A stretch of 37,474 nt of DNA. Origin: a virus (taxonomy: Duplodnaviria; Caudoviricetes). The first letter of the stretch is position 1. Each line of letters begins with the position of its first letter. The notes beneath the pieces were generated by a model. It had not been told where the DNA came from. It saw nothing but the letters and a program-made list of their open reading frames with translations, and did no database searches. The DNA lies in IMG/VR virus record IMGVR_UViG_3300037483_001819, positions 1-37,474 of that record. One strand, given 5' to 3'. Made by a program: the position numbers and the translations under genes. Below, in pieces: positions 3,247 to 21,229 of the stretch.

Positions 3247-4671
3247 GTGAATGAAGTGAGCACAGCAGCAGCGAAAATTTACAGCATGCCTTACAGTCCA
3301 TTGATAGCACGGGACCTGCTTGCGCAATGCGGGATATCCCAGCCAGAGGCGGCAGCAGCCATAGGCTTTAACAAAGAGACAGTGCGGCTGGCAATCAACA
3401 GAGGTTATATCCCCAGGGCAAACGTCAGGCGGAACCTCAGGCAGCAGCTTGAGGCATTCCTTGGCACAAACACCACAGCAGCAGAATGGCTGCGCAGGCA
3501 CGGCCTGACAATGGCTGACATCTGGAGAAAAAGCAGCAACGAAGCAGCGAGCATTTATCCCATCAATCACGGTGAGAAGGTCTATCACAGCAGGCGGCAT
3601 GACCTGCAGGCAATACCCCGTGTCGGACGTGAACATAAAAAACTACAAAGACAACTCGGAAGGAGAAAGCAGATTATGGAAAACGGCTACGCAACATTGG
3701 CTGCCTATGGTTACAACGGCAGTCCATTTTCAGAGGTCCGCATACCAACAGCGGACGGCAGCACGCTCAGGCGTCTTTTTAAAATGGCAACTGAGGCAAA
3801 GGCGATGGTCTCTGTTATCGCGCCTTACGGGGCAGGAAAGACCACAGCGATCGAGACAGCGCTTGACGGCCTGCCCTGTCATCACATATGCCTCAATCTT
3901 GCAGACAAGGAAAACATGAAGGTCGCGGACATCGAACGTGCGCTGGTCCGCAGGCTCTCACAGGAGCCCATTGCGCGGGACCGCGACACAAGGGCCTTGC
4001 AGGTCAGCCGTGTCGTGGGTGAGGCAGGCAAGAGCAAGCCGGTTGTGCTGATCATCGAAGAGGCCCATGTAATGCACCATAGCACTCTCCGGGCGCTCAA
4101 GCGGATCCGCGAGTATGACTGGATGGGCCGCAGACCTCTGCTGGCGGTTGTACTGATCGGCCAGTTCGATAAATTAAAGACAGCCAACCTCGCTGAGTGC
4201 CACAGGGGAGTCAGAAGCGACACCTATAAACTGCAGGGTCTGGCGCCCTCAGAGGCGCGGCTTTATGTCAATGAGACAGTCGGCGAGTGCTTCGAACCCG
4301 AGGCTGTAAAGGCGCTTTCAGAGCTGCCAGACGCGCGGAATTTTCTTGATCTGCAGGAGGCGATCATCACCCTTATGCAGGCAGGCCTCAGCAGCGGGAC
4401 AAAAAAGGTGACTGTGCTCGATGTGTTTCAGGCTTATGGCGGAGGCATCAAACAACTCATGGACAAATACGATATTAAATTATCGCAGCTTGCGGAACTC
4501 ACAGGCGAGCATAACAGCACACTGAGCCTGGTCATCAACAACAAACCGCATACACTGAGTAAGGAAAAGGAAGTGGCGGTGAAGACCGCCATATCTGACG
4601 CGATCAAAACACTGACCCAGCAGCCAGGGCACAAATCGCATAAAGCTGCTGCTGATTTAAAGGTGGTGTAG
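3247..4671 (+). CDS. Transposition AAA+ ATPase (MuB/ExeA-like) with HTH-like terminal segments
   Basis: Walker A APYGAGKTT, Walker B LIIEEAH, VVLIGQ; follows the transposase. Confidence 0.85.
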   Translation: MNEVSTAAAKIYSMPYSPLIARDLLAQCGISQPEAAAAIGFNKETVRLAINRGYIPRANVRRNLRQQLEAFLGTNTTAAEWLRRHGLTMADIWRKSSNEAASIYPINHGEKVYHSRRHDLQAIPRVGREHKKLQRQLGRRKQIMENGYATLAAYGYNGSPFSEVRIPTADGSTLRRLFKMATEAKAMVSVIAPYGAGKTTAIETALDGLPCHHICLNLADKENMKVADIERALVRRLSQEPIARDRDTRALQVSRVVGEAGKSKPVVLIIEEAHVMHHSTLRALKRIREYDWMGRRPLLAVVLIGQFDKLKTANLAECHRGVRSDTYKLQGLAPSEARLYVNETVGECFEPEAVKALSELPDARNFLDLQEAIITLMQAGLSSGTKKVTVLDVFQAYGGGIKQLMDKYDIKLSQLAELTGEHNSTLSLVINNKPHTLSKEKEVAVKTAISDAIKTLTQQPGHKSHKAAADLKVV

Positions 4672-6370: not shown

Positions 6371-6576
6371 AGACCGGCTGGATAAAAACAGAGTTGAAGA
6401 TCGGAAGGCCTAAATGGCATTTCTTTGATCGTAAAAAAATGCACGGGGCCAGAGAGGTGTCTTTATGCGGGCAGATCAGGCTGTATACAGTTACTGACCT
6501 GGAGACGCGACATATTATGGAGGCGGGTAACTGTCTGCTGTGTGTGAAGATTTTAAAGAAGATGGAGGTGGTATGA
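6367..6576 (+). CDS. Hypothetical protein
   Basis: 69 aa; KWHFF...SLCG...CLLC; overlaps both neighbours. Confidence 0.55.
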   Translation: MKTGWIKTELKIGRPKWHFFDRKKMHGAREVSLCGQIRLYTVTDLETRHIMEAGNCLLCVKILKKMEVV

Positions 6577-6809
6577 GCACAAAAAACAAATTGACCGATT
6601 TGAACAATCATTTATTTGCCCAGTTGGAACGGCTCTCCGATGAAGAGACAGTGGGCGACAAGCTTGCTGAGGAAATTGAAAGATCGCGGGCTGTGGGAGG
6701 AATCGCAAGGACCATTATCGACAATGCCAAGCTCGCACTGGAGGCTCAAAAGGCGTTAGATGACACGGTGCGCACGCTTCCGCCTGTGTTAAGCATCGGG
6801 GACAAATGA
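6573..6809 (+). CDS. Conserved phage hypothetical protein preceding the HNH gene
   Basis: KNKLTDLNNHLFAQLERL motif; GGAGG RBS. Confidence 0.7.
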   Translation: MSTKNKLTDLNNHLFAQLERLSDEETVGDKLAEEIERSRAVGGIARTIIDNAKLALEAQKALDDTVRTLPPVLSIGDK

Positions 6810-7426
6810 GACGTTATACAAAGGAGCATTTGGATTTTCTTTGCGCTCATTACCCGGAGATGTCGCGTTCCGAGCTGACAACATTATTTAATGCGCAATT
6901 CGCGGAGAACGTGACTGTGAAGGGACTGGTCTCCACAATTGAAAATCACAAGATCATCTCCGGTAGAACAGGGCAATTTGTAAAGGGGCAGGAGGCGTGG
7001 AACCTCGGAGTGAAGGGGTACATGGGGCCGAACAAAACCAGCTTCAAAAAGGGAAGTGTGCCGTCCAACAGAAAGCCGATCGGATCTGAAAGGATCTGCT
7101 CCAAGGACGGCTTTATCCTTGTAAAGATAAAAGAGCGTAATCCATATACGGGGTACCCGACCCGGTACAAGCACAAGCATGTCCACGTATGGGAGAAAAA
7201 ACACGGCACTGTGCCAAAGGGCCATGTTGTGGTATTTAAAGACGGGAACAAACTTAACTGCAAGCCGGGCAACCTGATGCTGCTGACCAGGGCTGAGCTG
7301 CTGGTCCTAAATCAGCACGGATACAAAGAGGCCCCAGCCGAATTAAAACCTACTATCCTTGCACTGGTAAAGCTGGAGACCAAGGCCGGGTTCAGATCGC
7401 GGCTAGTCAGGGGACGAAATGGCTGA
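6806..7426 (+). CDS. HNH endonuclease family protein
   Basis: KHVHVWEKKHGTVPKGHVVVFKDGNKLNCKPGNLMLLTRAEL; FKKG..P.N repeats. Confidence 0.85.
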   Translation: MRRYTKEHLDFLCAHYPEMSRSELTTLFNAQFAENVTVKGLVSTIENHKIISGRTGQFVKGQEAWNLGVKGYMGPNKTSFKKGSVPSNRKPIGSERICSKDGFILVKIKERNPYTGYPTRYKHKHVHVWEKKHGTVPKGHVVVFKDGNKLNCKPGNLMLLTRAELLVLNQHGYKEAPAELKPTILALVKLETKAGFRSRLVRGRNG

Positions 7427-7850
7427 GCAGATCAAAATTGATTTTAAAAATGTAGGGGCGCTGCTTGCCGCGCCCGGTATTAACGGCAACAGCCAGGGCG
7501 CGGCAAGCAGCGCCCCTACGGGAGACATGACGGACATCGAGACCCGCGTCCTCGCCCTCATTCAGCGGGGCCGCAGCAACGCCATCAGTATGCCTGCGCT
7601 GGCTGAGGCCTGCGGGATATCCACCAGAGAGTTGCAGTCGATTAAGAAACACCTGGTTGAAGACCACGGGGTTTTGATCGTCTCATCCTGCGGGAAAAAC
7701 AACGGATATTATTATCCGGAGAACGCCGAAGAATTCGACGCAGGAGCAGACCAGATAATTCATCGGATCATCTCCCTGGCGAAACTCCTCAGGGCGATGA
7801 ACAAAGAGAAATACGAGCACATATTCTGCCAGGGAAGGATTGAGCTATGA
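7419..7850 (+). CDS. Winged HTH domain protein
   Basis: GRSNAISMPALAEACGISTRELQSIKKHL...GYYY. Confidence 0.7.
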   Translation: MAEQIKIDFKNVGALLAAPGINGNSQGAASSAPTGDMTDIETRVLALIQRGRSNAISMPALAEACGISTRELQSIKKHLVEDHGVLIVSSCGKNNGYYYPENAEEFDAGADQIIHRIISLAKLLRAMNKEKYEHIFCQGRIEL

Positions 7851-8587
7851 TCAGTAAAATCCAGATCAAACTCATCAAGATCGGACAGAAGCAGATCGGT
7901 CTGAGCGATGAGCAATACCGCGACATGCTCTCTGACCGCTACTGGAAACACTCCTGCACAGAGCTGACGTATAAAGAGGCCTCTGACCTGATCGATCATT
8001 TTAAGACGCTGGGGTTTGCGGTAACTCCCCCATCCCCCTCTTATGTTAAGAGGGGGCAAGCAAAGCGCGGGGGCGTTACGAGATACGAATCCTCCATTGC
8101 CGGGCTGCGGCAGGAGATCGCAGACATTGCGCGTGAGAGGTTTGGCCGTGATTTCGAGTCCCCGCTCAATGCCCTGTGCAAAAAATTCAAGGTCGATCAC
8201 TGGAAATTTTTAAACGTGGCCACAGGCAAGGAGATCAAGGCTGCGTTGATAAGGATGCAACAAAGCGGACAGCCAAAAAACTCTTTACCACCCCGGCCTG
8301 CGGCCACCCCTCCTAAAATAGGCGGGGAGCTCATGACCAAACAGCAACTCAAAGAGATCGAGTTGCTCAAGGCTGATGTGCTCTGGAGCAGTGGGCCGAT
8401 GGGCTATTACAAATGGCTGAAGGCGTATTTAAAAAAGGACAGCATCTCAACATATAAGGAGGCGGAGGCGGTCAAGAAGGCGCTGAAGGGAATGCGGAAT
8501 GCGGAATGCGGAATGCGGAATGCGGAGACAGGGGAGAACTATTTCCGCCGTGATGGCGGGCTGTATGGAGGGCATTATGAATGGTAG
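7847..8587 (+). CDS. gemA: GemA/gp16 (DUF1018) family regulatory protein
   Basis: QIKLIKIGQKQIGLSDEQYRDML...SCTELTYKEASDLIDHFKTLGF N-terminal signature. Confidence 0.85.
   Translation: MISKIQIKLIKIGQKQIGLSDEQYRDMLSDRYWKHSCTELTYKEASDLIDHFKTLGFAVTPPSPSYVKRGQAKRGGVTRYESSIAGLRQEIADIARERFGRDFESPLNALCKKFKVDHWKFLNVATGKEIKAALIRMQQSGQPKNSLPPRPAATPPKIGGELMTKQQLKEIELLKADVLWSSGPMGYYKWLKAYLKKDSISTYKEAEAVKKALKGMRNAECGMRNAETGENYFRRDGGLYGGHYEW
8491..8525 (+). repeat. Tandem heptamer (AATGCGG)x5 inside the 3' end of gemA
   Basis: Five perfect copies read directly. Confidence 0.95.
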
Positions 8588-8774
8588 GAAGATAGACCCT
8601 GAATCACAAGCGATATGGGATGATCTGCGCAAAGCAGAACGATCACAAACATGCCCTCAATTATCCTGCTGCGATATGGTTCATGGCCTGATCAGGGCCG
8701 GCTATACGCGGATAATGGTAGATAACCTGAGCGTCACACTGAGGTTTTGTCCTCAGTGCGGCAGGAGGTTGTAG
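8577..8774 (+). CDS. Small Zn-ribbon protein
   Basis: GGAGG RBS; CC...FCPQCGRRL C-terminus. Confidence 0.65.
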   Translation: MNGRKIDPESQAIWDDLRKAERSQTCPQLSCCDMVHGLIRAGYTRIMVDNLSVTLRFCPQCGRRL

Positions 8775-8784
8775 GGAATTTAAT

Positions 8785-9150
8785 ATGAAAATTGACGACA
8801 AAATAAAGACACCGGGAGGGGTAGGAATTGTGGAAACTATTAATGATGTAAAAGCGATTGAAAGAGTTGAGAGTCTTCTTTCTCTTCTGAAGGTTGACGG
8901 CGATGCTATTTTTAAAATTATCGGATTGGTGCAGGACCACGCCGATTTCTTCAATGTGAGAATGGGCCATCGTTGCCTTCAGGCGGCAGCGACAAAGCTT
9001 GAGCAACTGGTCCGTGAGAATGTGGCCGATAAGCTGTACCCCGCTCGGGGATCAGCTTTATTGGCTTTGTTCGTCGGCGCGGAGCAGAGACGGACAAAGA
9101 CACAGCTTATCGGCCACATTCGCCGGACGCAATGGAAAAGTCTCTTTTAG
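8785..9150 (+). CDS. Hypothetical protein (C-terminal third runs through a palindrome)
   Basis: 121 aa ORF; last ~45 codons overlap the 9010-9128 inverted repeat. Confidence 0.55.
   Translation: MKIDDKIKTPGGVGIVETINDVKAIERVESLLSLLKVDGDAIFKIIGLVQDHADFFNVRMGHRCLQAAATKLEQLVRENVADKLYPARGSALLALFVGAEQRRTKTQLIGHIRRTQWKSLF
9010..9128. repeat. Branched palindrome with perfect 20-bp stem
   Basis: GAATGTGGCCGATAAGCTGT (9018-9037) is the exact reverse complement of 9102-9121; two internal hairpins. Confidence 0.85.
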
Positions 9151-9195
9151 TGAAACGGATATCTAATTTAAAAGGGCATTGGATTGGAGAAAATA

Positions 9196-9357
9196 ATGGA
9201 GAATAAAAGTCCTCAAGAATTAGCCGAAGCCCACTGGAAGTATATTGAAGACCTTTTAAAAGAACACGGCGAATCAGATGCCGTTATTTCTAAGATTGGA
9301 TTTCAAGTCGCCTCGATGAAATTGTTGTGTGAGGTGTTATATGGCTTTTTATATTAG
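9196..9357 (+). CDS. Small hypothetical protein (53 aa), reads through the attC half-site
   Basis: GGAG RBS; MENKSPQELAEAHWKYIEDLLKEHGESDAVISKIGF then continues into attC-derived sequence. Confidence 0.55.
   Translation: MENKSPQELAEAHWKYIEDLLKEHGESDAVISKIGFQVASMKLLCEVLYGFLY
9306..9330 (-). other. Truncated attC (R''/L'' arm only)
   Basis: Minus strand ACACAAC-AATTT-CATCGAG; matches the GTTGTGTG start of the same cassette; no partner arm found. Confidence 0.65.
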
Positions 9358-9508
9358 ACCTGAACGCATAGAGAAAATAATGGTGTGGCTGAGATGCCTC
9401 ATTTCTCATGATTGGGAATTTCGGGGTAATTTCTTTGTAGTAAGTGGCGGAGATAAGCCGTGGGGCCTGCATAAATGTAAACGATGTGGAAAGACGGCAG
9501 CATGGTAG
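9341..9508 (+). CDS. Cassette 5 (distal) ORF, 55 aa, C-x3-H...CxxC zinc-ribbon-like (DUF1660-like)
   Basis: Manual translation MAFYIRPERIEKIMVWLRCLISHDWEF...HKCKRCGKTAAW*; GAGGTG RBS. Confidence 0.7.
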   Translation: MAFYIRPERIEKIMVWLRCLISHDWEFRGNFFVVSGGDKPWGLHKCKRCGKTAAW

Positions 9509-9512
9509 TTAC

Positions 9513-9605
9513 ACACAACGCTCCGTTTAACCCGCGCGGAGTAAGACCTGAGACAGAAAAAACCGACGCGGTGAAGCTGCGTCGGTGTTGAAACGGTTGT
9601 TATAA
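9513..9605 (-). other. attC recombination site (93 bp)
   Basis: Minus strand TTATAAC-AACCG-TTTCAAC...GTTAAA-CGGAGC-GTTGTGT: 5/6-bp spacers and an extra base in L''. Confidence 0.9.
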
Positions 9606-9623
9606 AACCGACTTGGAGAACCT

Positions 9624-9800
9624 ATGAAAAAATGTGATTGTAGTTATCGTCGTTTTGTAGGGACTTATGGACATGACCGTTGCTACAAGGGGATGACATA
9701 TAAAATATTCCCTGACGGAGTGGTGGCTGAATATACAAAAAAATGCAGTTGGTTGAGGCGCTTGATTTGCGGAAAAGGCATTGATAAGCCGGTTTTATAA
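9624..9800 (+). CDS. Cassette 4 ORF, 58 aa Cys-rich hypothetical
   Basis: Manual translation MKKCDCSYRRFVG...GIDKPVL*; GGAG RBS; stop TAA inside the TAAC core. Confidence 0.7.
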   Translation: MKKCDCSYRRFVGTYGHDRCYKGMTYKIFPDGVVAEYTKKCSWLRRLICGKGIDKPVL

Positions 9801-9885
9801 CAACGCCGTCATGAGGGGCCGGGAATCCGATAATGGATTTTCAAACCTTAGCTATTCCCGGTCACTCTCGAAGCGGTTGTTACAC
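9795..9885 (-). other. attC recombination site (91 bp; irregular L'-R' spacer)
   Basis: Minus strand GTGTAAC-AACCG-CTTCGAG..CCGGGAAT...ATTCCCGG..CTCATG-ACGGCGTT-GTTATAA. Confidence 0.8.
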
Positions 9886-9917
9886 ATTTTTTCATCTTCT
9901 TTTATTAAGGAGGCACA

Positions 9918-10121
9918 ATGCCAGGAGTAGACCATAGATGCACAACACACCATTACGCCTGTGATTGCAGGGAGGCTGCTATAAAGTTTGTGGCCGAAAG
10001 ATTGCTTTCTGAACATGATGAACTTGCAAAATTCAAATCTGGATTTGGAAAGCCACGCCCATGCTTCTGTGCTGGCTGCCAAGAGGCGCGTAAGTTGATG
10101 GCGATTTCGGTAGATGTGTAA
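9918..10121 (+). CDS. Cassette 3 ORF, 67 aa Cys/His-rich hypothetical
   Basis: AAGGAGG RBS; CTTHHYACDCRE...CFCAGC; stop in TAAC core. Confidence 0.75.
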   Translation: MPGVDHRCTTHHYACDCREAAIKFVAERLLSEHDELAKFKSGFGKPRPCFCAGCQEARKLMAISVDV

Positions 10122-10203
10122 CGCCGTGCTCATTTGCCGGGGCACGAGCAAAACTAAAAACCGACCGGCGTTATTCGGGGTCGGCTGGGAGAAATTGTTA
10201 AAC
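10116..10203 (-). other. attC recombination site (88 bp)
   Basis: Minus strand GTTTAAC-AATTT-CTCCCAG...ATGAG-CACGGC-GTTACAC. Confidence 0.8.
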
Positions 10204-10230
10204 ATTTTCTATGCCTTGAAAGGAGGAAAA

Positions 10231-10509
10231 ATGTTCATTGAAGTAACAGATAAAATCAAGGATTCGTTGGAAGATCCATTGGATAGGATTTTCCGTAACG
10301 ATTACACCCCGGAGGGTATGTTTGAAAATGCTCAGTTCTTGAGGTATCGGCACAAAACTGGTACATGGGAAATTGAAATCAGGTCTGGTTTTTCTAAATT
10401 CAAGGTGATGCTTCAAGAATTTCAGGCTATGGCAATAATCAACAACGAGTTGGGGCATGACTTTACGCTTCAGGTCAGCAAATATGATAGAGATGCATTG
10501 TATGTTTAA
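10231..10509 (+). CDS. Cassette 2 ORF, 92 aa hypothetical
   Basis: AGGAGG RBS before ATG 10231 (ORF-track start 10114 would translate the attC); stop in TAAC core. Confidence 0.75.
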   Translation: MFIEVTDKIKDSLEDPLDRIFRNDYTPEGMFENAQFLRYRHKTGTWEIEIRSGFSKFKVMLQEFQAMAIINNELGHDFTLQVSKYDRDALYV

Positions 10510-10593
10510 CGTGCCGCGTGAGGCGCACGGGAACAGACGTGTGCTAAAAACAAACCAGCCTTCAACCGTGTCGCTTCGACGCGGTTGTTATGA
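10504..10593 (-). other. attC recombination site (90 bp)
   Basis: Minus strand TCATAAC-AACCG-CGTCGAA-GCGACACGG...CCGTGCGC-CTCACG-CGGCAC-GTTAAAC. Confidence 0.9.
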
Positions 10594-10608
10594 GGAGGTA
10601 TTAAATTT

Positions 10609-10842
10609 ATGGTTCAGGTAGTTGAAGAGCTTTATGAAATAAATATTGGTGGTGTTCCGGGTGATGAAGAAATGGGGCCGTCTTTTTTGATTAAGGCTTT
10701 CAAAGGCAAAAGAACTGAGAAATTCTATGGGCTGAAGATTATTCCCTCTGACGGCAGCAAGACACGGGAAATTTGGTTTAGCGATTTAAACCAGATAGCG
10801 AAACTGATAGAAAAAACGGGAGGCAAGACGGATGCCTCATAA
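10609..10842 (+). CDS. Cassette 1 (attI-proximal) ORF, 77 aa hypothetical
   Basis: GAGGAGG RBS overlapping the R'' box; stop TAA in the attI core. Confidence 0.75.
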   Translation: MVQVVEELYEINIGGVPGDEEMGPSFLIKAFKGKRTEKFYGLKIIPSDGSKTREIWFSDLNQIAKLIEKTGGKTDAS

Positions 10843-10865
10843 CAATTACTCTACGGAGAAAATGG
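10837..10865 (-). other. Putative attI site (crossover G|TT at 10843/10842)
   Basis: Minus strand ...CCGTAGAGTAATTG|TTATGAGG; GTTATGAGG complements R'' CCTCATAAC of the first attC; no hairpin; directly 5' of intI. Confidence 0.7.
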
Positions 10866-10891
10866 CTATGTATGAAATCTGGAGGTGATGC

Positions 10892-11917
10892 ATGAATACA
10901 GCGACAGCAAAGGTTTATTACCTCAATAAGAATAAATATCAGAAAAGCAATTGCCGACCAGAAGAGGAAGGGGCTTTTTGGAAGGGCATGCGGAATGAGA
11001 TCAGGCTGCGGCATTATAGCTACAGCACTGAAAAGACCTATGTTGACTGGTGTAAAAAGTTTGTCCTTTATTACAAGAAGAAGCACCCCCGTGACATGGG
11101 ATCGCAAGAGGTAAAGGACTATCTCACATACCTGGCGGTAAAGAGAAACCACGCCGCCTCGACGCAAAACCAGGCGTTTAATGCGCTGCTTTTTATGTAC
11201 CGGGAATACCTCAAAATAGAATTGACGGGGATAGATGCTGTCCGGGCGAAGAAGCCGAAGAAACTACCGGTGGTATTTACACATGATGAAGTGGATGCGG
11301 TTATGGACCATATGCGAGGGACGTATTGGATCATGTTCGCGTATATGTATGGCGCAGGGCTCAGGCTGATGGAGTGCTGCCGCTTAAGGGTTAAGGATAT
11401 TGATTTTGGGATGAAAAACATAACTGTCCGCGACGGCAAGGGTGGTAAGGACAGAACAGTGCCGCTGCCTGAGACCTCCATCGACAGAACCAAGCGGCAC
11501 CTGGAAAAAGTAAAAGCTGCACATGAAAAAGATTTACGCGAGGGCTACGGTACGGTCGAAATGCCCTTTGCGCTCGATCGGAAATATCCAAACGCAAAGA
11601 GGGAGTGGGGATGGCAATACGTCTTCCCCGCTGAATTCAGATCACGCGATCCACGCAGCGGCATTGTCCGGAGGCATCACCTCCATGAATCGGCAGTCCA
11701 GAAAATGGTCCATTCCGCAATCTTGAAGGCGAGGATTGTTAAACAGGCATCATGCCATACCCTTCGTCACAGCTTTGCCACTCATCTCCTTATGGCAGGC
11801 ACGGATATCCGCACAATACAAACACTAATGGGGCATAAAAACATAGAGACAACCATGATATATTTGCACGTGATAGGACAGGGCGCAGCAGTCAAAAGCC
11901 CTATGGATATGAGATGA
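10892..11917 (+). CDS. intI: Integron integrase (tyrosine recombinase)
   Basis: [45 protein letters not shown], IntI-specific insertion [21 protein letters not shown]...[30 protein letters not shown]; catalytic R-K-H-R-H-Y intact. Confidence 0.96.
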
Positions 11918-12228
11918 ACTGGCTTGACAACATACGGCGTGAGGACCTGCATGAAAGTTATCAGGAGCTGATGGATGTTATGACTGGCGTCATCGGAGAT
12001 GCGCTAAGCATTGAGCTGATTATGAAATTGTCGTGCCACTACAAGGGCCAGTTTTATTTCCGCAGCCTGCAGGACATGATTTCCGACCGCAAGAAGAAAT
12101 TTATTATCGCTAATTTTAACGGTGACAACCATGAAGAGCTGGCGCGCAAGACAAACTGGTCGCTGCGCTATATCTACGATATTCTCGCCGAAGACCGCAA
12201 TAAATCTCAGCTCTCTTTTTTGAACTAG
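11914..12228 (+). CDS. mor: Mor/C family transcription activator
   Basis: [25 protein letters not shown]-terminal HTH, QLSF tail; sits just before the lysis/late genes. Confidence 0.88.
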
Positions 12229-12235
12229 TTCAAAA
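12218..12235. promoter_or_regulatory. Perfect 18-bp palindrome TTTTGAACTAGTTCAAAA; candidate late-activator binding site
   Basis: Dyad spans the mor stop codon at the start of the early/late intergenic region; function inferred from position. Confidence 0.5.
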
Positions 12236-12384
12236 GACGCCTTCCCTTCTGCTCCGATAAAATCGGAGCATGCGTAACAAATCCATTGAGTTTTCCCCAT
12301 TAAAGCTGCAGGTTGTTTCACCCCCTGGGGGCGTCGGGCTTCACCTCCCTCAGCGCCCCTGCCTCACCCTCCCTTGCAGTGGCA

Positions 12385-12419
12385 ACAACCCCCTTGATCC
12401 CCCTTTGCTAAGGGGGAAT
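12385..12419. repeat. REP-like element ACAACCCCCT..CCCCCTTT.CTAA.GGGGAAT (second copy at 212-244)
   Basis: Two near-identical dispersed hairpin copies. Confidence 0.75.
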
Positions 12420-12421
12420 AT

Positions 12422-12868
12422 TTGATGCCTAAGGAAATCTTTGAAAAGTTATCAGACCTCGAACTCATCACTCTCTGCGTCTATGGCGAGGCGCGCAATC
12501 AGGGGCTTGACGGTATGCTGGGAGTGGCCTCGGTAATTGTCAACCGCGCGAAGCATCCCTCCTGGTGGGGCAGTGACATAAAGACCGTGGTGCTTAAGCC
12601 CAAACAGTTTTCCTGCCTTAATGAAAACGATCCCAACGTCTCGATTCTCAGGCAGATAGCAGAGGACTTCTCCGGCAGCCTTTCAAAACTCGGCGTGCTG
12701 AGGTTATGCCACTGGATATGCAGGGGCCTGCTTGAGGGCATGCTCTACAGCAACGTCGGCAGCGCAACGCACTACCACACTGTAAACTGCGATCCTGAGT
12801 GGGACGATAACATGCGACTGATTAAAAAAATCAACCAGCATGTGTTTTTTGAGGTGAAAAAGAAATGA
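12422..12868 (+). CDS. Endolysin, SleB/Hydrolase_2 cell wall hydrolase
   Basis: YGEARNQG, VASVIVNR, PKQFSCLN, ATHYH, INQHVFF. Confidence 0.9.
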   Translation: MMPKEIFEKLSDLELITLCVYGEARNQGLDGMLGVASVIVNRAKHPSWWGSDIKTVVLKPKQFSCLNENDPNVSILRQIAEDFSGSLSKLGVLRLCHWICRGLLEGMLYSNVGSATHYHTVNCDPEWDDNMRLIKKINQHVFFEVKKK

Positions 12869-13464
12869 AATATGTAACCCCAATATATGGCAAAGACTTC
12901 GGCCCCGGATATGTGGGTTTCTCGCGCAGGCGCAAAACAGGGCACATCATCAATGACGTTATTGTCTGGTTTGGCAATCTTCAGGAGGCCTGCGATTTTT
13001 CCGCTTCTCATGTGTTTGTGGTAGTAAACGAACGCATGGGGATTGAAAGCGCTGAAAGAGGCGCGGAGTATTTCAATCTTCAAAAAAGGCTATCCAACCC
13101 TGACCTGGAATTTGTCTTCAGGGAGCCCTCGCAGCTTGGCTGGCTGACAGTCAGGGAGATGCTGGAAGAAGGAGCAAGGCTGGAGAAAAAGGAAGTGCCC
13201 TATGACTATACAGGCCTGATCTTCGGGCATCCCATAGCAGCACTGGGACTGGCGAGGTGGTTTAAACCGCTGAGAAAAATGCCTGTACTGTTTCATTGGC
13301 CGGGATCTATGGTGTGTTCGAGCCTCGGGGCAAGACTGTTGAAGGCCACTACTGTGTTTAAAAATTTCAGGCTGTTCAGGGAATGGAATATTTTAAGGAT
13401 AACGCCTGTGATCCTTTACAATCACGGGCCATTTAAACCTTTTCGTTTCGACAAAAACAGATAG
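12865..13464 (+). CDS. Permuted papain-like NlpC/P60 (YiiX/YaeF-like) protein
   Basis: His motif (ASHV) precedes PYDY and Cys motif (MVCSSL). Confidence 0.7.
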   Translation: MKYVTPIYGKDFGPGYVGFSRRRKTGHIINDVIVWFGNLQEACDFSASHVFVVVNERMGIESAERGAEYFNLQKRLSNPDLEFVFREPSQLGWLTVREMLEEGARLEKKEVPYDYTGLIFGHPIAALGLARWFKPLRKMPVLFHWPGSMVCSSLGARLLKATTVFKNFRLFREWNILRITPVILYNHGPFKPFRFDKNR

Positions 13465-13473
13465 GAGGAAATT

Positions 13474-14016
13474 GTGATGAAACAGATTTACTGGATTTTG
13501 ATGGTGAGCGTGTTATTGACAGGCTGTGCCTCAGACAGGGCGTATGAGGCCTATGGCAACGCCTATGCGGCCTATGCAGGGCAACCTGATGTACAGACAA
13601 AGGCATGTGAAATTAACACTAAAAATGCGGTGACGCTGCCGGAAGGTTTTAATCTTGTCTGTTATCAGGCAAACACCGCGGCCAATCTTGTGCCTCCGCA
13701 GCAGATAAAGGACAGCGAATGGACAGCCCCTGTGCATAGCCTTGTCGGTGTTGTCGGCACAGTCGGAAGCATCGCTGTCGGCGGTCAGATGTTAAAGGAG
13801 GTCGTGGGAAAAGTCGGGAAATATGCAGGACACAATACTGCAGGGTCTTACAATCCAGTGGACAACTCCAACCAGGGCAATCCGATAGACAACTCCAATC
13901 AGGGAAACCCTGTGACGACTCCGGCCCCTGTGATAGTGAATCCTCCGGTAGTTATCACTCCTGTCTATGAGCCGCCGGTTGTTATAACACCTGTCATCCA
14001 GGGTGCGGCGCAATGA
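13474..14016 (+). CDS. Lipoprotein with Pro/Val-rich C-terminus
   Basis: Lipobox LLTGC; NPVDNSNQG duplication; PPVVITPV repeats. Confidence 0.7.
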   Translation: MMKQIYWILMVSVLLTGCASDRAYEAYGNAYAAYAGQPDVQTKACEINTKNAVTLPEGFNLVCYQANTAANLVPPQQIKDSEWTAPVHSLVGVVGTVGSIAVGGQMLKEVVGKVGKYAGHNTAGSYNPVDNSNQGNPIDNSNQGNPVTTPAPVIVNPPVVITPVYEPPVVITPVIQGAAQ

Positions 14017-14225
14017 AGGCGGGCCTTATCGCAGCATTGCTGTTGCTGATGGTTATGATTGGAGGCTGCGCCTCTGTGAGTGTGGACAACGGCAAATGCC
14101 ACGCGCAGTACTCCTCCTGGTTTAAAACACTCGACGGCGTCAGTATGTCCGCCTGCAGCGCGCAGGGCTCGGCAGTCAAATCAACAGTGGACATCCAGGA
14201 TTTCACTGACGGGGTGATGAAGTAG
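14013..14225 (+). CDS. Small lipoprotein
   Basis: Signal peptide ending IGGC. Confidence 0.65.
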   Translation: MKAGLIAALLLLMVMIGGCASVSVDNGKCHAQYSSWFKTLDGVSMSACSAQGSAVKSTVDIQDFTDGVMK

Positions 14226-14540
14226 ATGACTGAATTCGCCTCAGCGATAAAAGATTTCATGCTTGCGGCCCAGACACTGGGGCCGTGGGGCGTGGTCTTT
14301 TTTCTCTGGTGGGACAGCCGCAAACAGGACGCGAAATGGCAGTCCAGGTTTACCTCAGTTGAAGAGATGTACAAAAACAACGTCAAGCTGGTTGAGGCAT
14401 ACGAGAAGATGGCCGGCGGATACCAGGACATCGTTATCTTCAACACGCAGAAAATAACCGGGGTCATCGACCGGGTCGATAACAATCTTTTTTGCCCTAT
14501 CGTAAAGGACAAGACCAAGCCCAAGGAGGTGCACGGTTGA
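14226..14540 (+). CDS. Single-TM phage protein (possible holin/antiholin)
   Basis: LGPWGVVFFLWW hydrophobic segment then coiled region, C-terminal FCP; lysis-region position. Confidence 0.5.
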   Translation: MTEFASAIKDFMLAAQTLGPWGVVFFLWWDSRKQDAKWQSRFTSVEEMYKNNVKLVEAYEKMAGGYQDIVIFNTQKITGVIDRVDNNLFCPIVKDKTKPKEVHG

Positions 14541-14785
14541 GCGACGCGCGGTTACATTTAAAAGGTGAGCTTGCGGATTTAAAACAGCAATTGATGGAAC
14601 TGGAAATTGTCGGCAAAAACCATGCAGACGAAATCAAGACGCTCCTGTCGCTGTCCGCGGCCCGCCCTATCGAAAAAATAGACACACAGGAAATCCTGTC
14701 GCGCGCCAGGCAGCTCCACGAGGCCAGGGAAAAGCAGGCACAGTTAATGACAACGATCAGGCGGATTGCCAGGGAGCTGGAATAG
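14537..14785 (+). CDS. Coiled-coil hypothetical protein
   Basis: AGGAGG RBS before TTG 14537; overlaps both neighbours. Confidence 0.6.
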   Translation: MSDARLHLKGELADLKQQLMELEIVGKNHADEIKTLLSLSAARPIEKIDTQEILSRARQLHEAREKQAQLMTTIRRIARELE

Positions 14786-15363
14786 TGGCAAAGAAAAGCA
14801 CCCTCACCCCTGCCCTCTCCCCTCAAGGGCGAGGGAGAAAAGAGCACGAGAAAAAACGGCGGCATGGGAAGGTATACGAACTGCCGGAGGCGGTCAGGCA
14901 CGAAGTCAATGCGCTCATTGTACAACCGGAAATAACCTACGAAGATATCAGCGCCTTTTTAAAAACACGGGGCTATGACATTAGCACCTCCGCAATCGGC
15001 AGATACTGCCAGTGGTTCTTTAACGAGGTCCGCGAAACAGAGATGCTGCGCGACCAGGCAAAGCTGCTCACATCTGATCCGGATAAAGTCCTGCTGCTTG
15101 AGAAGCTCACATCGAGCATGATCGTCAAGCGGTTGGCAATTGCGCTACAGGAAGAAGAATTCGACGTGATGAAAAACGCCAAGCTGATCGCGGCCTATGC
15201 ATCATTGCAAAAGGCGAACCTTGACCGCGAGAAGTGGGGGGCGGAGATACAAAAGACAATCAAGGGTGTGGCAGAGGATGTCAGCAAGATCGTCAAGAAA
15301 AACGGTCTGTCGGAAGCTGCTGCAAGCCAGATCAGGAATAAGATACTGGGGATAAAAACATGA
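14785..15363 (+). CDS. DUF3486 / Mu gp27-like putative terminase small subunit
   Basis: RRHGKVYELP...TYEDISAFLKTRGYDISTSAIGRY; GLSEAAASQIRNKILGI C-terminus. Confidence 0.88.
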   Translation: MAKKSTLTPALSPQGRGRKEHEKKRRHGKVYELPEAVRHEVNALIVQPEITYEDISAFLKTRGYDISTSAIGRYCQWFFNEVRETEMLRDQAKLLTSDPDKVLLLEKLTSSMIVKRLAIALQEEEFDVMKNAKLIAAYASLQKANLDREKWGAEIQKTIKGVAEDVSKIVKKNGLSEAAASQIRNKILGIKT

Positions 15364-15370
15364 AATACAA

Positions 15371-17053
15371 ATGGTCGACGACAGCCAATTTGTCATTCCA
15401 CGGCTTGACCGGGGAATCCACGACAGGAAACTGGATGCCCGGATCAAGTCCGAGCATGACAGTCAGGTGGATATGATCACAGTCATTGATGAAATAAAGG
15501 CGCTGCAAAACGATGGTGTCCTCCTGAAATACCAGAAACGCTGGGTCGAAGACAAATCGCCTGTGAAGGTATGGGAGAAGTCCCGCCGGATCGGCGCGAC
15601 CTGGGCAGAGGCTGCGGATGACGCTTTGATAACTGCTACAGAGACCGGCATGGATGTTTTTTACATCGGCTACAACAAGGACATGGCCCGCGAGTTTGTG
15701 GATGAATGCGCCTCCTGGCTGCGGCATTATCAACTGGCAGCGGAGGAGGTCGAGGAATTCATATTTAAAGACAAGACCCCTGAGGGAGACAAAGACATAC
15801 ACGCCTTCAGGATCGATTGCGCCTCGGGGTTTAAAATTCTTGCGCTCAGCTCAAGGCCTTCGAACCTCAGAGGCAAACAGGGCATTGTGATCATAGACGA
15901 GGCCGCGTTCCATGACGACCTGCAGGGGCTCATCAAGGCTGCGATTGCGCTATTGATGTGGGGCGGCTTTGTCCGGATCATTACCACACACTTTGGCGAG
16001 GACAATCCCTTTAATGATCTGGTCAATTCCATCCGCGAGGGCAAGCTGCCCTATAGCCTGCATCGGACGACTCTGGATGACGCGCTGGCGGACGGGTTAT
16101 ACAAACGCATCTGTCTGGTATTAAACAGGGAGTGGACTCCGGAGTCCGAGGCCGCCTGGAGAGATGAGCTGATTAAATTCTACGGCGATCATGCTGACGA
16201 AGAACTTTTCTGCGTGCCTTCCAAGGGCTCGGGGATCTACTTCACCTCTGCGCTTATCAGGTCCTGCATGAAAGACGATATCCCTGTGCTGCGCTATACC
16301 TGCAGAGACGGCTTTGACGAGCTGCCGGATGAAGCCAGGAGGGCGGAGTGTCAAGCGTTCATTGACGACAATCTTGAACCTCTCCTGAAGGCGCTTCATA
16401 AATCGTCCCTGCATACACGCAATCATTTCTTTGGCGAGGACTTTGCCAGGGACATCGATCTGACGGTCATCACGCCTCTTACTGAACTTCAAAACCTTAC
16501 TCTTCGCGCTCCCTTTATCGTGGAGCTTCGGAACGTGCCGTTTAAACAGCAGGAGCAGATCCTGTTTTATATTGTCGATCGCCTGCCTAATTTCAGGGGC
16601 GGGGCGATGGACGCAAGGGGCAACGGACAATATCTGGCCGAGGTCGCCATGCAGCGCTATGGCACCTCAAGGATTTTTCAGATCATGCTCACCCGGCAGT
16701 TCTATCAGGACGCCATGCCGAAGTATAAGGTGCGCTTTGAAGACAAGACAATAGAGATCCCTCTGGATGCCGACATACTCGATGACCATAAGGTCGTCAG
16801 ATTGGAAAAGGGCATACCCTTAATTTCTGACACCCGCAAGGTCTCAGGGGAAGGCGGCAAGCGCCATGGTGACTCTGCAGTTGCCGGCATGCTCGGAGTT
16901 TATGCTTCGGACAATGCGGCCTCCGGGCCGATCGAATACGAGACAGTTGCCGTGCGCTCTCCGTTTTCCAACAAAGACGATGACTCTGACAGCAGGTTGA
17001 AGATGAGGGCGGATGACAATCCTCATCCGTTTAGAAAAAAGGGGGCATGGTGA
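15371..17053 (+). CDS. Terminase large subunit (Mu gp28-like); true start may be ATG 15473
   Basis: EKSRRIGATW, NLRGKQG, IIDEAAF, GEDFAR..DLTV, RHGDSAVA. Confidence 0.95.
   Translation: MVDDSQFVIPRLDRGIHDRKLDARIKSEHDSQVDMITVIDEIKALQNDGVLLKYQKRWVEDKSPVKVWEKSRRIGATWAEAADDALITATETGMDVFYIGYNKDMAREFVDECASWLRHYQLAAEEVEEFIFKDKTPEGDKDIHAFRIDCASGFKILALSSRPSNLRGKQGIVIIDEAAFHDDLQGLIKAAIALLMWGGFVRIITTHFGEDNPFNDLVNSIREGKLPYSLHRTTLDDALADGLYKRICLVLNREWTPESEAAWRDELIKFYGDHADEELFCVPSKGSGIYFTSALIRSCMKDDIPVLRYTCRDGFDELPDEARRAECQAFIDDNLEPLLKALHKSSLHTRNHFFGEDFARDIDLTVITPLTELQNLTLRAPFIVELRNVPFKQQEQILFYIVDRLPNFRGGAMDARGNGQYLAEVAMQRYGTSRIFQIMLTRQFYQDAMPKYKVRFEDKTIEIPLDADILDDHKVVRLEKGIPLISDTRKVSGEGGKRHGDSAVAGMLGVYASDNAASGPIEYETVAVRSPFSNKDDDSDSRLKMRADDNPHPFRKKGAW
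15391..15461. repeat. Paired palindromic element TGTCATTCCACGGCTTGACCGGGGAATCCA...TGGATGCCCGGATCAAGTCCGAGCATGACA
   Basis: Two inverted, individually hairpin-forming units (REP/RPE-like). Confidence 0.8.
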
Positions 17054-17063
17054 AAAAAAACAT

Positions 17064-17203
17064 TTGTTCTTTGTTTTTTGTTTTTTGTTCTTTGCTTTTA
17101 AACCACGAACCACGAACCACGAACTGCGAACCTGTCAGTTTAACCAGAGGCCGTAGGATCGACGATCCCCCCCCCTGTATGGGCAAAGAGGGGGGGGTCG
17201 GTC
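17064..17203. repeat. Heptamer-periodic repeats (TTTGTTT/AACCACG) plus C-run/G-run hairpin between terL and portal
   Basis: Read directly; intergenic. Confidence 0.7.
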
Positions 17204-17264
17204 TGTTATCTCAAAAAACTGCCTTTATAAAGTCAACTGGGGCCTATTGCGGAGGACAGTGCAG

Positions 17265-18893
17265 ATGATATTTGACGCCTTTGGCAGGGAAGTGACAATG
17301 ACCAGGCGTCCGGTGACGGATGAAATCGTTGTCTCCTCGGTCCGCGACAGATACAATTCCTATCCTGCTCAGGGACTCACGCCGGAGAATCTGGCCCTGA
17401 TATTCAAAGAGGCTGATCAGGGGGATGTCTACCGCCAGTCCGAGATGTTTGAGGAGATGGAGGAGCGGGACGCGCATTTGGGCAGCACTCTTCAGACCCG
17501 CAAGCTGGCCATACAGGGACTGTCCTGGGAGATACTACCGGCCTCTGAATCTCCTGAGGACAGCAAAATAGCGGATGCGGCAAAAGAGATGGTCGAATAC
17601 ATCGAGGATTTTGAAGGCGGTCTGCTGGACATCATGGACGCCCTCGGCAAAGGCTTTTCAGTCTCTGAAATCATGTGGGAGTTTGCAGAGAGGAGATGGT
17701 GGATTAAATCCCTCAACTGGGTGCACCAGAAAAGACTTACCTTCTCCGGCCCGCCAACAGCAGAGGACCTCGGGAGAGGCAACGCCTCACCCCTGCTTAA
17801 ACTGCCACGGCTGCTTACTGAGACAGAACAGGTCTGGGGCGAGGAATTGATGCCCTATAAATTTATTTATCATCGCGCCAAGTCACGCTCCGGGATTGCG
17901 CCCAGGGGCGGACTGCTGAGGCCCTGCGCGTATATGTATCTCTTTAAAAATTACGATATCAAGGACTGGCTGATATTTAACGAGCTTTATTCCGTGCCTA
18001 TGAGGATCGGCAAGTATGCCGCAAGCGCGACCCCGGCAGAGAAGACCGCGCTGAGGCAGGCGGTATTTAACCTGGGCGTGGATGCAGCGGCCATTGTCTC
18101 TGACTCAACAGTCATTGAATTGCTGGAGTCTAAAGTCAGGGGCGAGACCAGCGCGTTTAAAGACCTCGCGGATTTCTGTGATAAGGCGATGTCAAAGGCA
18201 GTGCTCGGCCACACAGGCAGCTCTGAAGGCACACCCGGCAAACTAGGCAGCGAAGACTCTGCCAATGAAGTCAGGCAGGACATACTCGAGGCGGACGCAA
18301 AGGCCCTGATGAAAACCCTCAGGGCGCAACTGCTGGCCCCGTGGGTTGTCTATAACTTCGGGCCTGACAAAGGCGTGCCGCAGTTTAAATTCCATTTCGA
18401 GGGTGAGGAAGATCTGGAGAAGATCGCCCGCACCTACGGCATCCTCGTCAAGGACGTTAATTACAAAGGCATCGGCGTCAAACATATTGCCGACAGGTTC
18501 GGCATCCCTCAGCCTGAGAAAGGGGAGGAGACGGTATCTGCGGTAGTCACGCCGAATCCGTTTGACGTAGAGGCGAAAGATCGGAAGATCGGAAGCGCGG
18601 AAGAAACAGCAACGCAGAAAAACAAAGGCGCGTTGCCATCAAAGGAAAAGCATCTCCCAATGATTGAATCTCAACAATCGGTTGACAATCTGGCTGACAA
18701 TGCGCTGGATGCAGGCGAAATTGATATAGAGACCATGAAAAACCTGATAGAACAGGCAACCTCCTATGAGGATTTACAGCAGAGGATAAAAGGGGCTTAC
18801 GGCAGCCTGGATATGAAACAGTTTCGCACCGTGATGGAGCAGGCGATGTTTATGGCTGATATTGCAGGGAGGTCGCTCAATGTCCGGGGCTGA
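17265..18893 (+). CDS. Portal protein (Mu gp29 / DUF935)
   Basis: FEEMEERDAHL...QTRKLAI, GLLRPCAYMYLFKNY..KDW..FNELY..PMRIGKY, MSKAVLG. Confidence 0.95.
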   Translation: MIFDAFGREVTMTRRPVTDEIVVSSVRDRYNSYPAQGLTPENLALIFKEADQGDVYRQSEMFEEMEERDAHLGSTLQTRKLAIQGLSWEILPASESPEDSKIADAAKEMVEYIEDFEGGLLDIMDALGKGFSVSEIMWEFAERRWWIKSLNWVHQKRLTFSGPPTAEDLGRGNASPLLKLPRLLTETEQVWGEELMPYKFIYHRAKSRSGIAPRGGLLRPCAYMYLFKNYDIKDWLIFNELYSVPMRIGKYAASATPAEKTALRQAVFNLGVDAAAIVSDSTVIELLESKVRGETSAFKDLADFCDKAMSKAVLGHTGSSEGTPGKLGSEDSANEVRQDILEADAKALMKTLRAQLLAPWVVYNFGPDKGVPQFKFHFEGEEDLEKIARTYGILVKDVNYKGIGVKHIADRFGIPQPEKGEETVSAVVTPNPFDVEAKDRKIGSAEETATQKNKGALPSKEKHLPMIESQQSVDNLADNALDAGEIDIETMKNLIEQATSYEDLQQRIKGAYGSLDMKQFRTVMEQAMFMADIAGRSLNVRG

Positions 18894-19536
18894 ATGGAAA
18901 CCACTACCGTTTGATGAGGCTATAGCCTTATTCAAAAGCAAGGTTGTTTTGACTCCGGAGGAATACAAGGCGCTTGAAGCGGCTGTCAGCCAGGCGGCTT
19001 TTACGGTCTCCGGGATCACTGAGGCGGATATCATCAACGATATTTACGATGAGCTACAAAGCGCTCTTGAAAAAGGGACTACATTCATTGATTTTAAAAA
19101 ACAGTTATTGCCAAAAATCGAATCAGCCTGGGGGAGTACTGCGCCTTACAGACTCGATACCATATTCAGGACGAATATCCAGTCCATGTATCAGGCGGGC
19201 CACTGGAAACAACAGATGGAAGTTGTTGATACACGACCCTACTGGCAATACGTTGCTGTAATGGATGGCCGTGTCAGACCTGCCCATGCTGCCATGAATG
19301 GAAAAGTTCTCCCAGCTGATGATCCTTTCTGGCAGCAGAACTATCCACCCAATGGGTTTAACTGCCGTTGTACCGTCAGGTCGCTATCTACCGGGGAGAT
19401 GGACCGCGAGGGGTTGTCTGTGTCTAATGTCAAACAGAATATTTTTGATAAAGGGTTTGGCACAAATCCTGCGGACTTATGGACTCCCGACTTATCCAAA
19501 TACCCTGATTGGCTAAGGGAGAAGATGACAAAATGA
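18880..19536 (+). CDS. Mu gpF/gp30-like minor head protein
   Basis: TIFRTN, YVAVMDGRVRPAH, YPPNGFNCRC. Confidence 0.92.
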   Translation: MSGAEWKPLPFDEAIALFKSKVVLTPEEYKALEAAVSQAAFTVSGITEADIINDIYDELQSALEKGTTFIDFKKQLLPKIESAWGSTAPYRLDTIFRTNIQSMYQAGHWKQQMEVVDTRPYWQYVAVMDGRVRPAHAAMNGKVLPADDPFWQQNYPPNGFNCRCTVRSLSTGEMDREGLSVSNVKQNIFDKGFGTNPADLWTPDLSKYPDWLREKMTK

Positions 19537-20039
19537 GCGGCGTAATTATCACCATAAAACATGATGACGCTAAGGTAAAGACATTATTGACTACGTTAAA
19601 AGAGCGCACCGGCAATCTCACCCCCGTAATGAAAGATATCGGCCAGATTGTGAGAAATTCGGTCATTCAGAACTTTATCTCTAGTGGCAGGCCGCAGAAA
19701 TGGAAACCTAATGCGTTTGCAACAATTATGGGTGGCCTTGGCAGAAAGGATTTCACAAAGAAAGGCACAGTGCGGAAGCCTTCAAGCCGCAGACTCTCCA
19801 AAGGCAAGGTGTTAATAGATACGGCAAGACTTCAAAATTCAATCACATCACGGGCCTTTAGCGACCATGTGGATATAGGCACTAATGTTATCTATGCGGC
19901 AATCCATCAATTTGGAGGCCCGGCTGGACGCGAATTGAACGTAACTATTCCTGCCCGACCATTTCTGATGATTCAGAAGGAGGATAAAACAGCATTCAGG
20001 GTAGCAGTCGAAAACTTTTTAATGAAAGGGGTGAAGTAA
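19533..20039 (+). CDS. Mu gpG-like virion morphogenesis protein
   Basis: LIDTARLQNSI, GTNVIYAAIHQFGG, IPARPFL. Confidence 0.92.
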   Translation: MSGVIITIKHDDAKVKTLLTTLKERTGNLTPVMKDIGQIVRNSVIQNFISSGRPQKWKPNAFATIMGGLGRKDFTKKGTVRKPSSRRLSKGKVLIDTARLQNSITSRAFSDHVDIGTNVIYAAIHQFGGPAGRELNVTIPARPFLMIQKEDKTAFRVAVENFLMKGVK

Positions 20040-20041
20040 TA

Positions 20042-21136: not shown

Positions 21137-21140
21137 AAAA

Positions 21141-21203: not shown

Positions 21204-21229
21204 AACAAAAGAAAAAGGAGGATTTGAAA

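Follow-up and report, generated by a model that had tools for sequence, protein, structure and literature searches.

A Complete Integron With Mirror-Image Cassette Genes in a Mu-Like Phage, Likely a Phage Device for Exchanging Small Accessory Genes

Introduction

Integrons are regarded as devices of bacteria, of late as stores of anti-phage genes, and the orientation of the genes in their cassettes as a fixed rule. What such a device does inside a phage, and which way its genes face there, is the question raised by the virus record IMGVR_UViG_3300037483_001819, whose whole 37,474-nt sequence was analysed (the window) and in whose early region a gene for an integron integrase (IntI) and an array of attC recombination sites with their gene cassettes occupy positions 9306 to 11917, directly before the mor gene of a Mu-like phage. 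The locus is probably a complete integron in which the cassette genes stand in mirror image and which likely serves the phage as a means of its own to capture, excise and exchange small accessory genes, the recombination activity of IntI being predicted from its sequence. The initial annotation of this DNA had proposed that the phage domesticated an integron for its accessory early genes. This proposal gains support from the polarity of the cassette open reading frames (ORFs), the overlap of intI with mor and the recovery of one cassette in a second context, but it has to be narrowed in that the platform is accessory and is shared with phages that are not Mu-like.

Polarity of the Cassette Genes

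The features of the array, from its left border to mor, are the following.

9196 to 9357, + strand: small truncated ORF that breaks off at about 9306, where it is fused to the half attC
9306 to 9330, + strand: half attC that marks the left border of the array, with a 3' arm bearing extrahelical T and G, a spacer and GTT, and no 5' arm
9324 to 9518, + strand: body of the distal (fifth) cassette, with ORF 9380-9508 (42 aa, Cys-rich)
9513 to 9605, + strand (the bottom strand): attC A, extrahelical G, T and T, 35.5 bits, scanner score 11.2
9519 to 9800, + strand: 282-bp cassette, attC A plus ORF 9624-9800 (58 aa)
9795 to 9885, + strand: attC B, 18.3 bits, scanner score 13.2, lowest-energy fold a full hairpin
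9801 to 10121, + strand: 321-bp cassette, attC B plus ORF 9918-10121 (67 aa)
10116 to 10203, + strand: attC C, a chimera of two attC types, 25.2 bits, L box mismatched, predicted weak
10122 to 10509, + strand: 388-bp cassette, attC C plus ORF 10231-10509 (92 aa)
10504 to 10593, + strand: attC D, canonical, extrahelical G and T, 41.5 bits, scanner score 14.2
10510 to 10842, + strand: 333-bp proximal cassette, attC D plus ORF 10609-10842 (77 aa)
10835 to 10870, - strand: putative attI, crossover AAC at 10841-10843, right limit approximate
10892 to 11917, + strand: intI, intact, 341 aa, stop codon overlapping the start of mor (ATGA)
11914 to 12228, + strand: mor (middle operon regulator family), PF08765, E 9e-10

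In an attC, the strand that recombines is the bottom one, which is marked by a leading AAC and by extrahelical bases close to L'' (PMC5027507). By these marks the bottom strand is the + strand in all four attC sites of the window, and all five cassette ORFs lie on it, pointing the same way as the early genes, intI and mor; the geometry of intI, attI and attC is the usual one, and it is the genes inside the cassettes that are turned. Each ORF has its own purine-rich leader just 3' of GTT, and the stop codon lies inside TAAC in four of the five. The turned ORFs, together with the distance of only 48 nt between attI and intI, the overlap of intI with mor and the occurrence of a cassette in a second context, argue for adaptation to the phage.

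Polarity was compared across IntI loci drawn from IMG/VR (29 plus 79) and from GTDB genomes (the best 80 from a scan of 8 of 64 parts). Loci whose IntI match had an E above 1e-20 were removed, as were exact duplicates and copies of the window, which left 76 viral and 80 bacterial loci; the phage context was checked by Pfam for some of the viral ones. In arrays located 5' of intI, 67 viral cassettes were called inverted, 13 canonical and 40 unclear or too short, against 11, 104 and 27 in bacteria. Counted by locus, 30 of 42 viral arrays are inverted, three canonical and nine undecided, whereas only two of 37 bacterial arrays are inverted, 30 being canonical and five undecided (Fisher p 8e-13, a value overstated in that the loci are not independent). 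The inverted arrays are scattered over several separate parts of the IntI tree. Arrays 3' of intI occur in ten viral loci, eight of which have normal cassettes, and a normal array on this side is a second route to making everything co-directional. The distance from attI to the ATG of intI is at most 81 nt in 15 of 18 viral loci versus none of 20 bacterial loci, counting only rows with an end match of at least 8 (24 viral and 28 bacterial rows in all).

Several of the sampled loci show arrangements of their own. In L018, L032 and L400 (4680-10100; KX853513, Virus Rctr41k), intI is followed on its 3' side by normally oriented cassettes, and in Rctr41k the IntI-like gene is annotated as xerD and has five attC-like sites 3' of it. 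A locus in a metagenome-assembled genome of Nevskia (L178, 7500-12700) encodes an IntI that groups with viral IntIs, has inverted cassettes and is followed by a serine recombinase; it is probably an unrecognised prophage. Variant phage attCs are found at L042 (4480-5990) and L046 (9003-9725), some with AAT/ATT cores instead of AAC/GTT, and some with C as the first extrahelical base and the next ORF beginning inside the loop.

attC Sites, attI and Cassette Boundaries

The attC sites were evaluated with a covariance model trained on 26 bacterial attC sites (84-100 nt, from normal cassettes, none from the window). The training sites were chosen with a purpose-built attC scanner, and their alignment has 94.7% of cells paired, with eight of 13 pairs changing on both sides, partly by construction. 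Unconstrained folds of three attC sites gave side hairpins, and the covariance model and constrained folds were used instead. The four attC sites are the top four of seven matches in the whole window, at 41.5, 35.5, 25.2 and 18.3 bits, followed by a match at 11.1 bits. The purpose-built scanner found three of the four, at scores of 11.2-14.2, on a background of 0.07 matches scoring at least 10 per shuffled 2-kb region (200 shuffles).

The AAC crossover triplets lie at 9517, 9799, 10120, 10508 and 10841, and their spacings of 282, 321, 388 and 333 bp agree with the cassette sizes first proposed; each of the ten cassette end motifs is present once in the window, at the position claimed for it. 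The complementarity of the two ends of each cassette, which had been taken as the signature of a former circle, is real but ordinary, since it averages 8.06 nt in 64 viral and 7.72 nt in 90 bacterial cassettes. Long complementary ends were accordingly rejected as a special feature, 8-12 nt being normal in cassettes.

The description of all four attCs as full hairpins holds for three canonical sites and has to be qualified for attC C. The 5' arm and loop of this site match an intact site at L387 whose 3' arm differs, its own 3' arm is of the type found at L397, and the same division near 10172-10176 is seen in contigs of sequencing runs X1 and X4. The site is a hybrid, to judge from these matches, that likely arose by recombination between two attC loops with deletion of the intervening DNA. 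A site related to attC A is present in prophage L388/L394. The fifth, distal cassette has its body and end motifs and, of its attC, only the 3' arm, which yields no model match above 0.6 bits; because this attC is incomplete, the cassette is predicted to be immobile. At this border the truncated ORF tracks its family up to IGF and is missing the conserved FHY...HG.KH tail, and no insertion sequence (IS) ends were seen at the borders of the integron.

The crossover AAC of the putative attI lies 48 nt before the start of intI and is complementary to the other end of the proximal cassette, and the + strand carries, 3' of the crossover, a short motif like those found 5' of intI in other phage integrons. 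There is no attC model match at this position.

An Intact Integrase Joined to mor

The initial claim of an intact IntI with the family-specific insertion is borne out. The protein matches TIGR02249 at 426 bits (cut-off 265), and its residues 29-338 align with VchIntIA (PDB 2A3V), the IntI-specific insertion included. It keeps R158, K183, H289, R292, H315 and Y324, which we take to be the catalytic residues and which are invariant across a nine-member IntI clade. The overlap of intI with mor is 4 nt long, and the same arrangement occurs in a second Mu-like phage, L046, whose IntI is 49% identical.

A promoter scan returned three sites versus 5.4 expected; neither the - strand nor the stretch from attI to intI holds a promoter-like site, and none of three LexA-box patterns matched within 10781-10960. 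A complete integron is expected to have in its platform a Pc promoter that reads into the array, and cassette ORFs on the top strand; the lack of a promoter-like site and the bottom-strand ORFs place the array as an integron variant. It is not a CALIN (cluster of attC sites lacking an integron integrase), as intI adjoins the array, nor a mobile class 1 integron, as its IntI is 44% identical to IntI1 and its cassette ORFs are without a Pfam, PHROG or NCBIfam match. Capture of a sedentary integron would not fit its best tblastn identity of about 55% to 30 Nitrospirota IntI loci, its non-canonical cassettes and the phage genes on both sides.

Cassette Mobility and Integrity of the Assembly

In run X1, which is possibly the source of the DNA, positions 9516-9801 form one mismatch-free unitig at a depth of 31.8, with two neighbours on each side. 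Upstream these are the window's own sequence (depth 19.5) and a foreign 3368-nt contig (depth 11.4); the foreign neighbour downstream is 1482 nt long (depth 13.4) and starts with a 6-nt spacer and an arm resembling attC B. The unitig has the same limits in run X2, and the same foreign upstream neighbour recurs in X4, which belongs to another study. The limits coincide with two AAC triplets, one at 9517-9519, to which a shared base is added, and one at 9799-9801. The moving unit is therefore attC A together with the gene on its 3' side. This is what the polarity predicts; a cassette of normal orientation would have brought attC B along instead of attC A. The 282-bp cassette is thus found letter-identical in a second context, as a unit whose limits fit a cut between the AA and the C. 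Its 58-aa protein is encoded on four contigs, the longest of 171,400 nt, while most of the other phage proteins that were compared reach a contig of 53,421 nt.

Two of the cassette proteins have likenesses elsewhere. The 92-aa protein (10231-10509) shows a borderline language-model likeness to the PolC N-terminal domain I (PF14480, 0.90), with recognition below the bar, and offers a lead only; a variant of the 77-aa proximal protein (10609-10842) with two substitutions is encoded on a 949-nt NCBI contig.

Repeated attC sites create branches in an assembly graph and no single assembly piece covers the whole region, so that a chimera of a phage contig and integron reads had to be considered. This explanation is largely refuted and the least credible of those weighed here. 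The IMG/VR contig L001 is 99.99% identical to the window over 9918-21914, and mismatch-free pieces bridge 8498-9545 (X1), 9252-9449, 9449-9706 and 10835-10985 (X3) and 11752-12026 (X4), with X3 and X4 coming from other studies. Since these pieces span the left border, attC A, the attI-intI junction and the intI-mor junction, they argue against a chimera, which the initial annotation had named as a finding that would overturn its reading.

Relatives in Phages and in the Likely Host Group

Eight full-length IntIs, 60-76% identical to that of the window, form a clade with it (SH-aLRT 99 in the larger tree). The two closest, P0002 and P0004, are encoded on contigs of 2022 and 36,096 nt, the same sizes as the contigs of two (P0123 and P0124) of the three Mor homologues found, which suggests, from the equal sizes, that they share the intI-mor pairing; the genome bearing P0004 was not found among 317 genomes. 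A smaller tree joins the clade to viral and prophage IntIs as its sister group (SH-aLRT 97), a placement that the larger tree leaves unresolved, and in both trees the window IntI lies outside the sampled Nitrospirota chromosomal IntIs. A single origin of the IntIs of Mu-like phages was tried as an exclusive clade of eight rows and rejected (p-AU 0.002), a weak test in that the group was picked after the first tree.

Two other Mu-like phages carry comparable loci. L046 has two attCs, which have C as the first extrahelical base and are missed by the covariance model, two other inverted cassettes and the intI that overlaps mor; L053 has mor, six attCs, intI and a lysin gene. The IntIs and cassettes of both are unrelated to those of the window. 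A further Mu-like phage, L309, has a lone attC (36.6 bits; 10286-10600) with a single inverted ORF, flanked by two mor-like genes; the DNA retrieved for it contains no intI.

Searches further afield added little to the clade. Nine of 50,697 GenBank phage records match the window IntI at E 1e-40, all at less than 60% identity. A metagenome pattern scan (35 of 64 parts) returned at least 120 loci, of which 118 have IntI, none belongs to the clade of the window and none carries another of the window's genes. No new close relative came from scans of viral sequences with Mor alone, with the 58-aa cassette protein, with the B protein or with the foreign upstream neighbour. L313, considered as a relative, proved to be a chance match.

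The host of the phage is likely a member of the Nitrospirota, as read from the sequence, and 42 of 401 genomes of this phylum carry an IntI at E 1e-120 or better. The prophage-like Nitrospirota loci L393 and L397, with helicase, primase and integrase neighbours, have inverted arrays, attCs of the window's family and a similar attI. The host integron L395 has attCs of the same family with normal cassettes, and both L395 and a second host integron, L396, are of canonical polarity.

Two of the prophage loci have features of note in themselves. L397 (8756-15352) contains eight attCs; two of its cassettes share end types with cassettes of the window (GTTAAACATTTT and GTTGTGTGAGG starts), and one bears a PAPS-reductase/DUF3440 gene pair. 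At L394 (9700-10750 of G389:C6), a prophage array with no intI nearby lies between terminase and portal genes and includes an inverted cassette, with a site like attC A, between two copies of a normal-polarity unit; the repeated unit is possibly a host-type cassette inside a phage array.

Comparison With Described Systems

The locus resembles canonical bacterial integrons, both class 1 and sedentary ones such as that of VchIntIA, in the IntI insertion, a putative attI by the 5' end of intI, attC hairpins with AAC/GTT, extrahelical bases and spacers, the usual side of the array and attC polarity, and complementary cassette ends. It differs from them in its bottom-strand cassette ORFs co-directional with intI, the 48 nt between attI and intI, and the overlap of intI with a phage regulator. 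In bacterial integrons cassettes mostly run opposite to intI (PMC4889954), and the correct orientation of a cassette is described as essential (PMC5027507). The inverted-integrase integrons of the Treponema type likewise have intI co-directional with the cassette genes; there, however, intI is turned relative to attC and the cassettes are normal, whereas in the phage the geometry of intI is normal and the cassette genes are turned (PMC4889954).

Integrons in phage records have been described, so that the initial statement that no equivalent was known stands only in part. Qi et al. (2023; PMC9892861) searched 10,705 phage genomes and report three complete integrons, one In0 and 17 CALINs, with examples in Va_90-11-286_p16, the P1 L-II phage, Shewanella M16-3 and TJE1. 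These resemble the window in having intI and/or attC arrays inside phage records; the complete ones are pieces of host or class 1 integrons, and phage attCs were shown to be substrates of IntI1. The available text of that paper makes no mention of inverted ORFs or of transposable phages. When M16-3, Va_p16 and TJE1 were rescanned here, most or all ORFs had normal polarity; the other 18 records lay outside this rescan, and some of them may be inverted. M16-3 was also considered as a Mu-like precedent and rejected, being P2-like (PMC8541194). The open literature, excluding subscription journals and bioRxiv supplements, yielded no phage integron with inverted genes and no integron in a transposable phage.

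Clusters of variable ORFs in the early region of T4 reportedly form PeSL cassettes, which have promoter-stem-loop repeats and no integrase. The genomic plasticity regions (RGPs) of Mu-like phages are likewise clusters of short variable ORFs in the early region, and the mechanism by which they are gained was left open, with Red-like recombination suggested (PMC4378225). Unlike RGPs and PeSLs, the window has a site-specific recombinase together with its sites.

Weighing the Explanations

Several observations weigh against reading the integron as the phage's own exchange device. The array shows signs of decay in its chimeric attC C, the half attC at its left border and attC B, whose spacer is 8 nt rather than 6 nt and whose AAC is doubled. 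Its cassette proteins have no assigned function, with no match in Pfam, PHROG, NCBIfam or PADLOC. Excised circles and reordered arrays, which the initial annotation expected of an active platform, have no counterpart within the array: no excision or reordering joints are listed there in the six runs (X5 and X6 being without matching pieces), and L001 keeps the same order over 9918-21914. The 282-bp cassette does occur elsewhere, though the integrase that moved it may be another. Polarity judged by stop codons is less sharp, with 31 bottom-only against 17 top-only among 97 viral sites, compared with 10 and 46 among 100 bacterial sites. IntI is also absent near mor in five of six other viral Mor loci and in 12 of 12 Nitrospirota regions, including L349, whose B protein is 68% identical to that of the window, and L345, whose Mor is 57% identical. 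The expected synteny of gemA, attC array, intI and mor finds comparable cases in L046 and L053, while most of the Mu-like relatives checked have no IntI near mor; the platform is thus an accessory of Mu-like phages rather than an ancestral part.

The chief competing explanation is that the cassettes are mobile and are moved mainly by a host IntI or by homologous recombination between attCs, the phage intI being a dispensable passenger. It is unlikely, though it deserves more weight than any other rival: attC C resembles a product of recombination inside the loops of two attCs and not at AAC, the phages L309 and L394 have inverted cassettes and, in the DNA retrieved for them, no intI, and the likely host group supplies both IntIs and attCs of the same family. 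A passenger, however, would have to be reconciled with an intact gene that has eight full-length relatives and with an overlap with mor that recurs in two Mu-like phages with different IntIs, and a host IntI with the report that attI is recognised only by its cognate integrase (PMC2095811). That a piece of a host chromosomal integron was captured once by accident, as Qi et al. (2023) describe for Vibrio and Shewanella, is distinctly improbable. The host integrons (L395, L396) and 30 of 37 bacterial arrays are canonical, published captures keep normal polarity, and the window IntI groups with viral and prophage IntIs rather than with the sampled chromosomal ones, subject to the tree support given above; such a capture would nonetheless account for the abrupt left border inside a phage ORF, the slightly lower G+C of the segment (0.43-0.45 vs about 0.50 elsewhere), the absence of the integron from close Mu-like relatives and the resemblance of its attCs to those of the host. 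More doubtful still is the view that IntI serves the phage genome and not cassette traffic, by integrating it into host attC arrays or resolving replication products. The phage has its own DDE transposase and B protein, its attI lies mid-genome and is occupied by cassettes, and cassette-level exchange requires no such function, even though a Vibrio prophage bounded by attC sites has been reported (PMC9892861).

Proposed Mechanism and Wider Meaning

If the integron is the phage's own exchange device, IntI would cut the folded + strands of attC between AA and C, as in the established integron mechanism, so that the mobile unit would be an attC with the gene 3' of it, and new units would enter at attI beside intI. 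The layout suggests that a separate Pc/PintI module is lacking and that the tail of the early transcript of the phage covers cassettes, intI and mor. Such a shared transcript would switch shuffling on at induction or infection, with no need for a LexA box. Partners for cassette swapping could then be other phages and prophages that share the attC family and the host group, likely the Nitrospirota. Mu replication is biased from left to right. More speculatively, if the fork follows transcription, with which the positive G+C skew over most of the window would fit, the inversion may select a favoured lagging-strand setting for the bottom strands; bottom strands on the lagging-strand template are reported to recombine more (PMC5371416).

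A wider proposal, for which the chances seem about even, is that phages run a mirror-image integron pool of their own, traded among Mu-like, lambdoid and other phages by IntIs wired into the lytic early operon, and that this pool is kept apart from the bacterial one; the existence of such a pool would imply that cassettes form independently of the orientation rule of bacteria. Behind a bacterial Pc a mirror-image cassette would be silent, as would a bacterial cassette in a phage operon, so that one chemistry would sustain two separate pools. If this is true, the mirror pool offers a direct way into the unsolved question of how cassettes originate. Their formation becomes testable in that the same attC family carries genes either way in host and prophage; whether the choice of strand can be tuned for high turnover becomes a second testable question. 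The reversed, phage-adapted form would also offer a mechanism for the fast turnover of small early accessory genes, in the region where counter-defence genes often lie.

The Phage Genome and Its Other Features

Pfam and PHROG matches identify the phage as Mu-like, with transposase, B protein, Gam, GemA, Mor, Mu portal, I and gpT all present. The order on the + strand is transposase, B protein, Gam, HNH, GemA, integron, Mor, lysin, Mu gp27 and terminase, followed 3' of terminase by Mu portal, F, I, gpT and tail genes. The start and end of the record fall within genes or short of the phage ends, G+C skew is positive across most of the window, and proteins of this phage are also encoded on the 53,421-nt contig mentioned above. 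The early genes outside the integron to which the argument refers are these.

1559 to 3169, + strand: Mu-type DDE transposase, phrog_310, E 3e-27
3247 to 4671, + strand: Mu B-like transposition ATPase by Pfam and PHROG, 68% identical to its counterpart in a Nitrospirota prophage
7847 to 8587, + strand: gemA, PF06252, E 3e-16

Between the B gene and gemA, at 6540-7426, a phrog_2044 ORF and the HNH gene share 76% and 55% identity with genes of L049, a phage that is not Mu-like, where their homologues lie immediately 5' of an inverted integron. An Rfam search of the window gave three weak matches, all under the gathering scores. A heptamer tandem repeat at the end of gemA (8488-8527) matches very many unrelated contigs in the runs, as does a C-rich/G-rich hairpin repeat present in several copies (8285-8331, about 213-243 and 12385-12420). 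Finally, a glycoside hydrolase 130/32/43-like protein and a BppU-like protein are encoded at 24119-26738, as an insertion between the capsid and head-tail adaptor genes.

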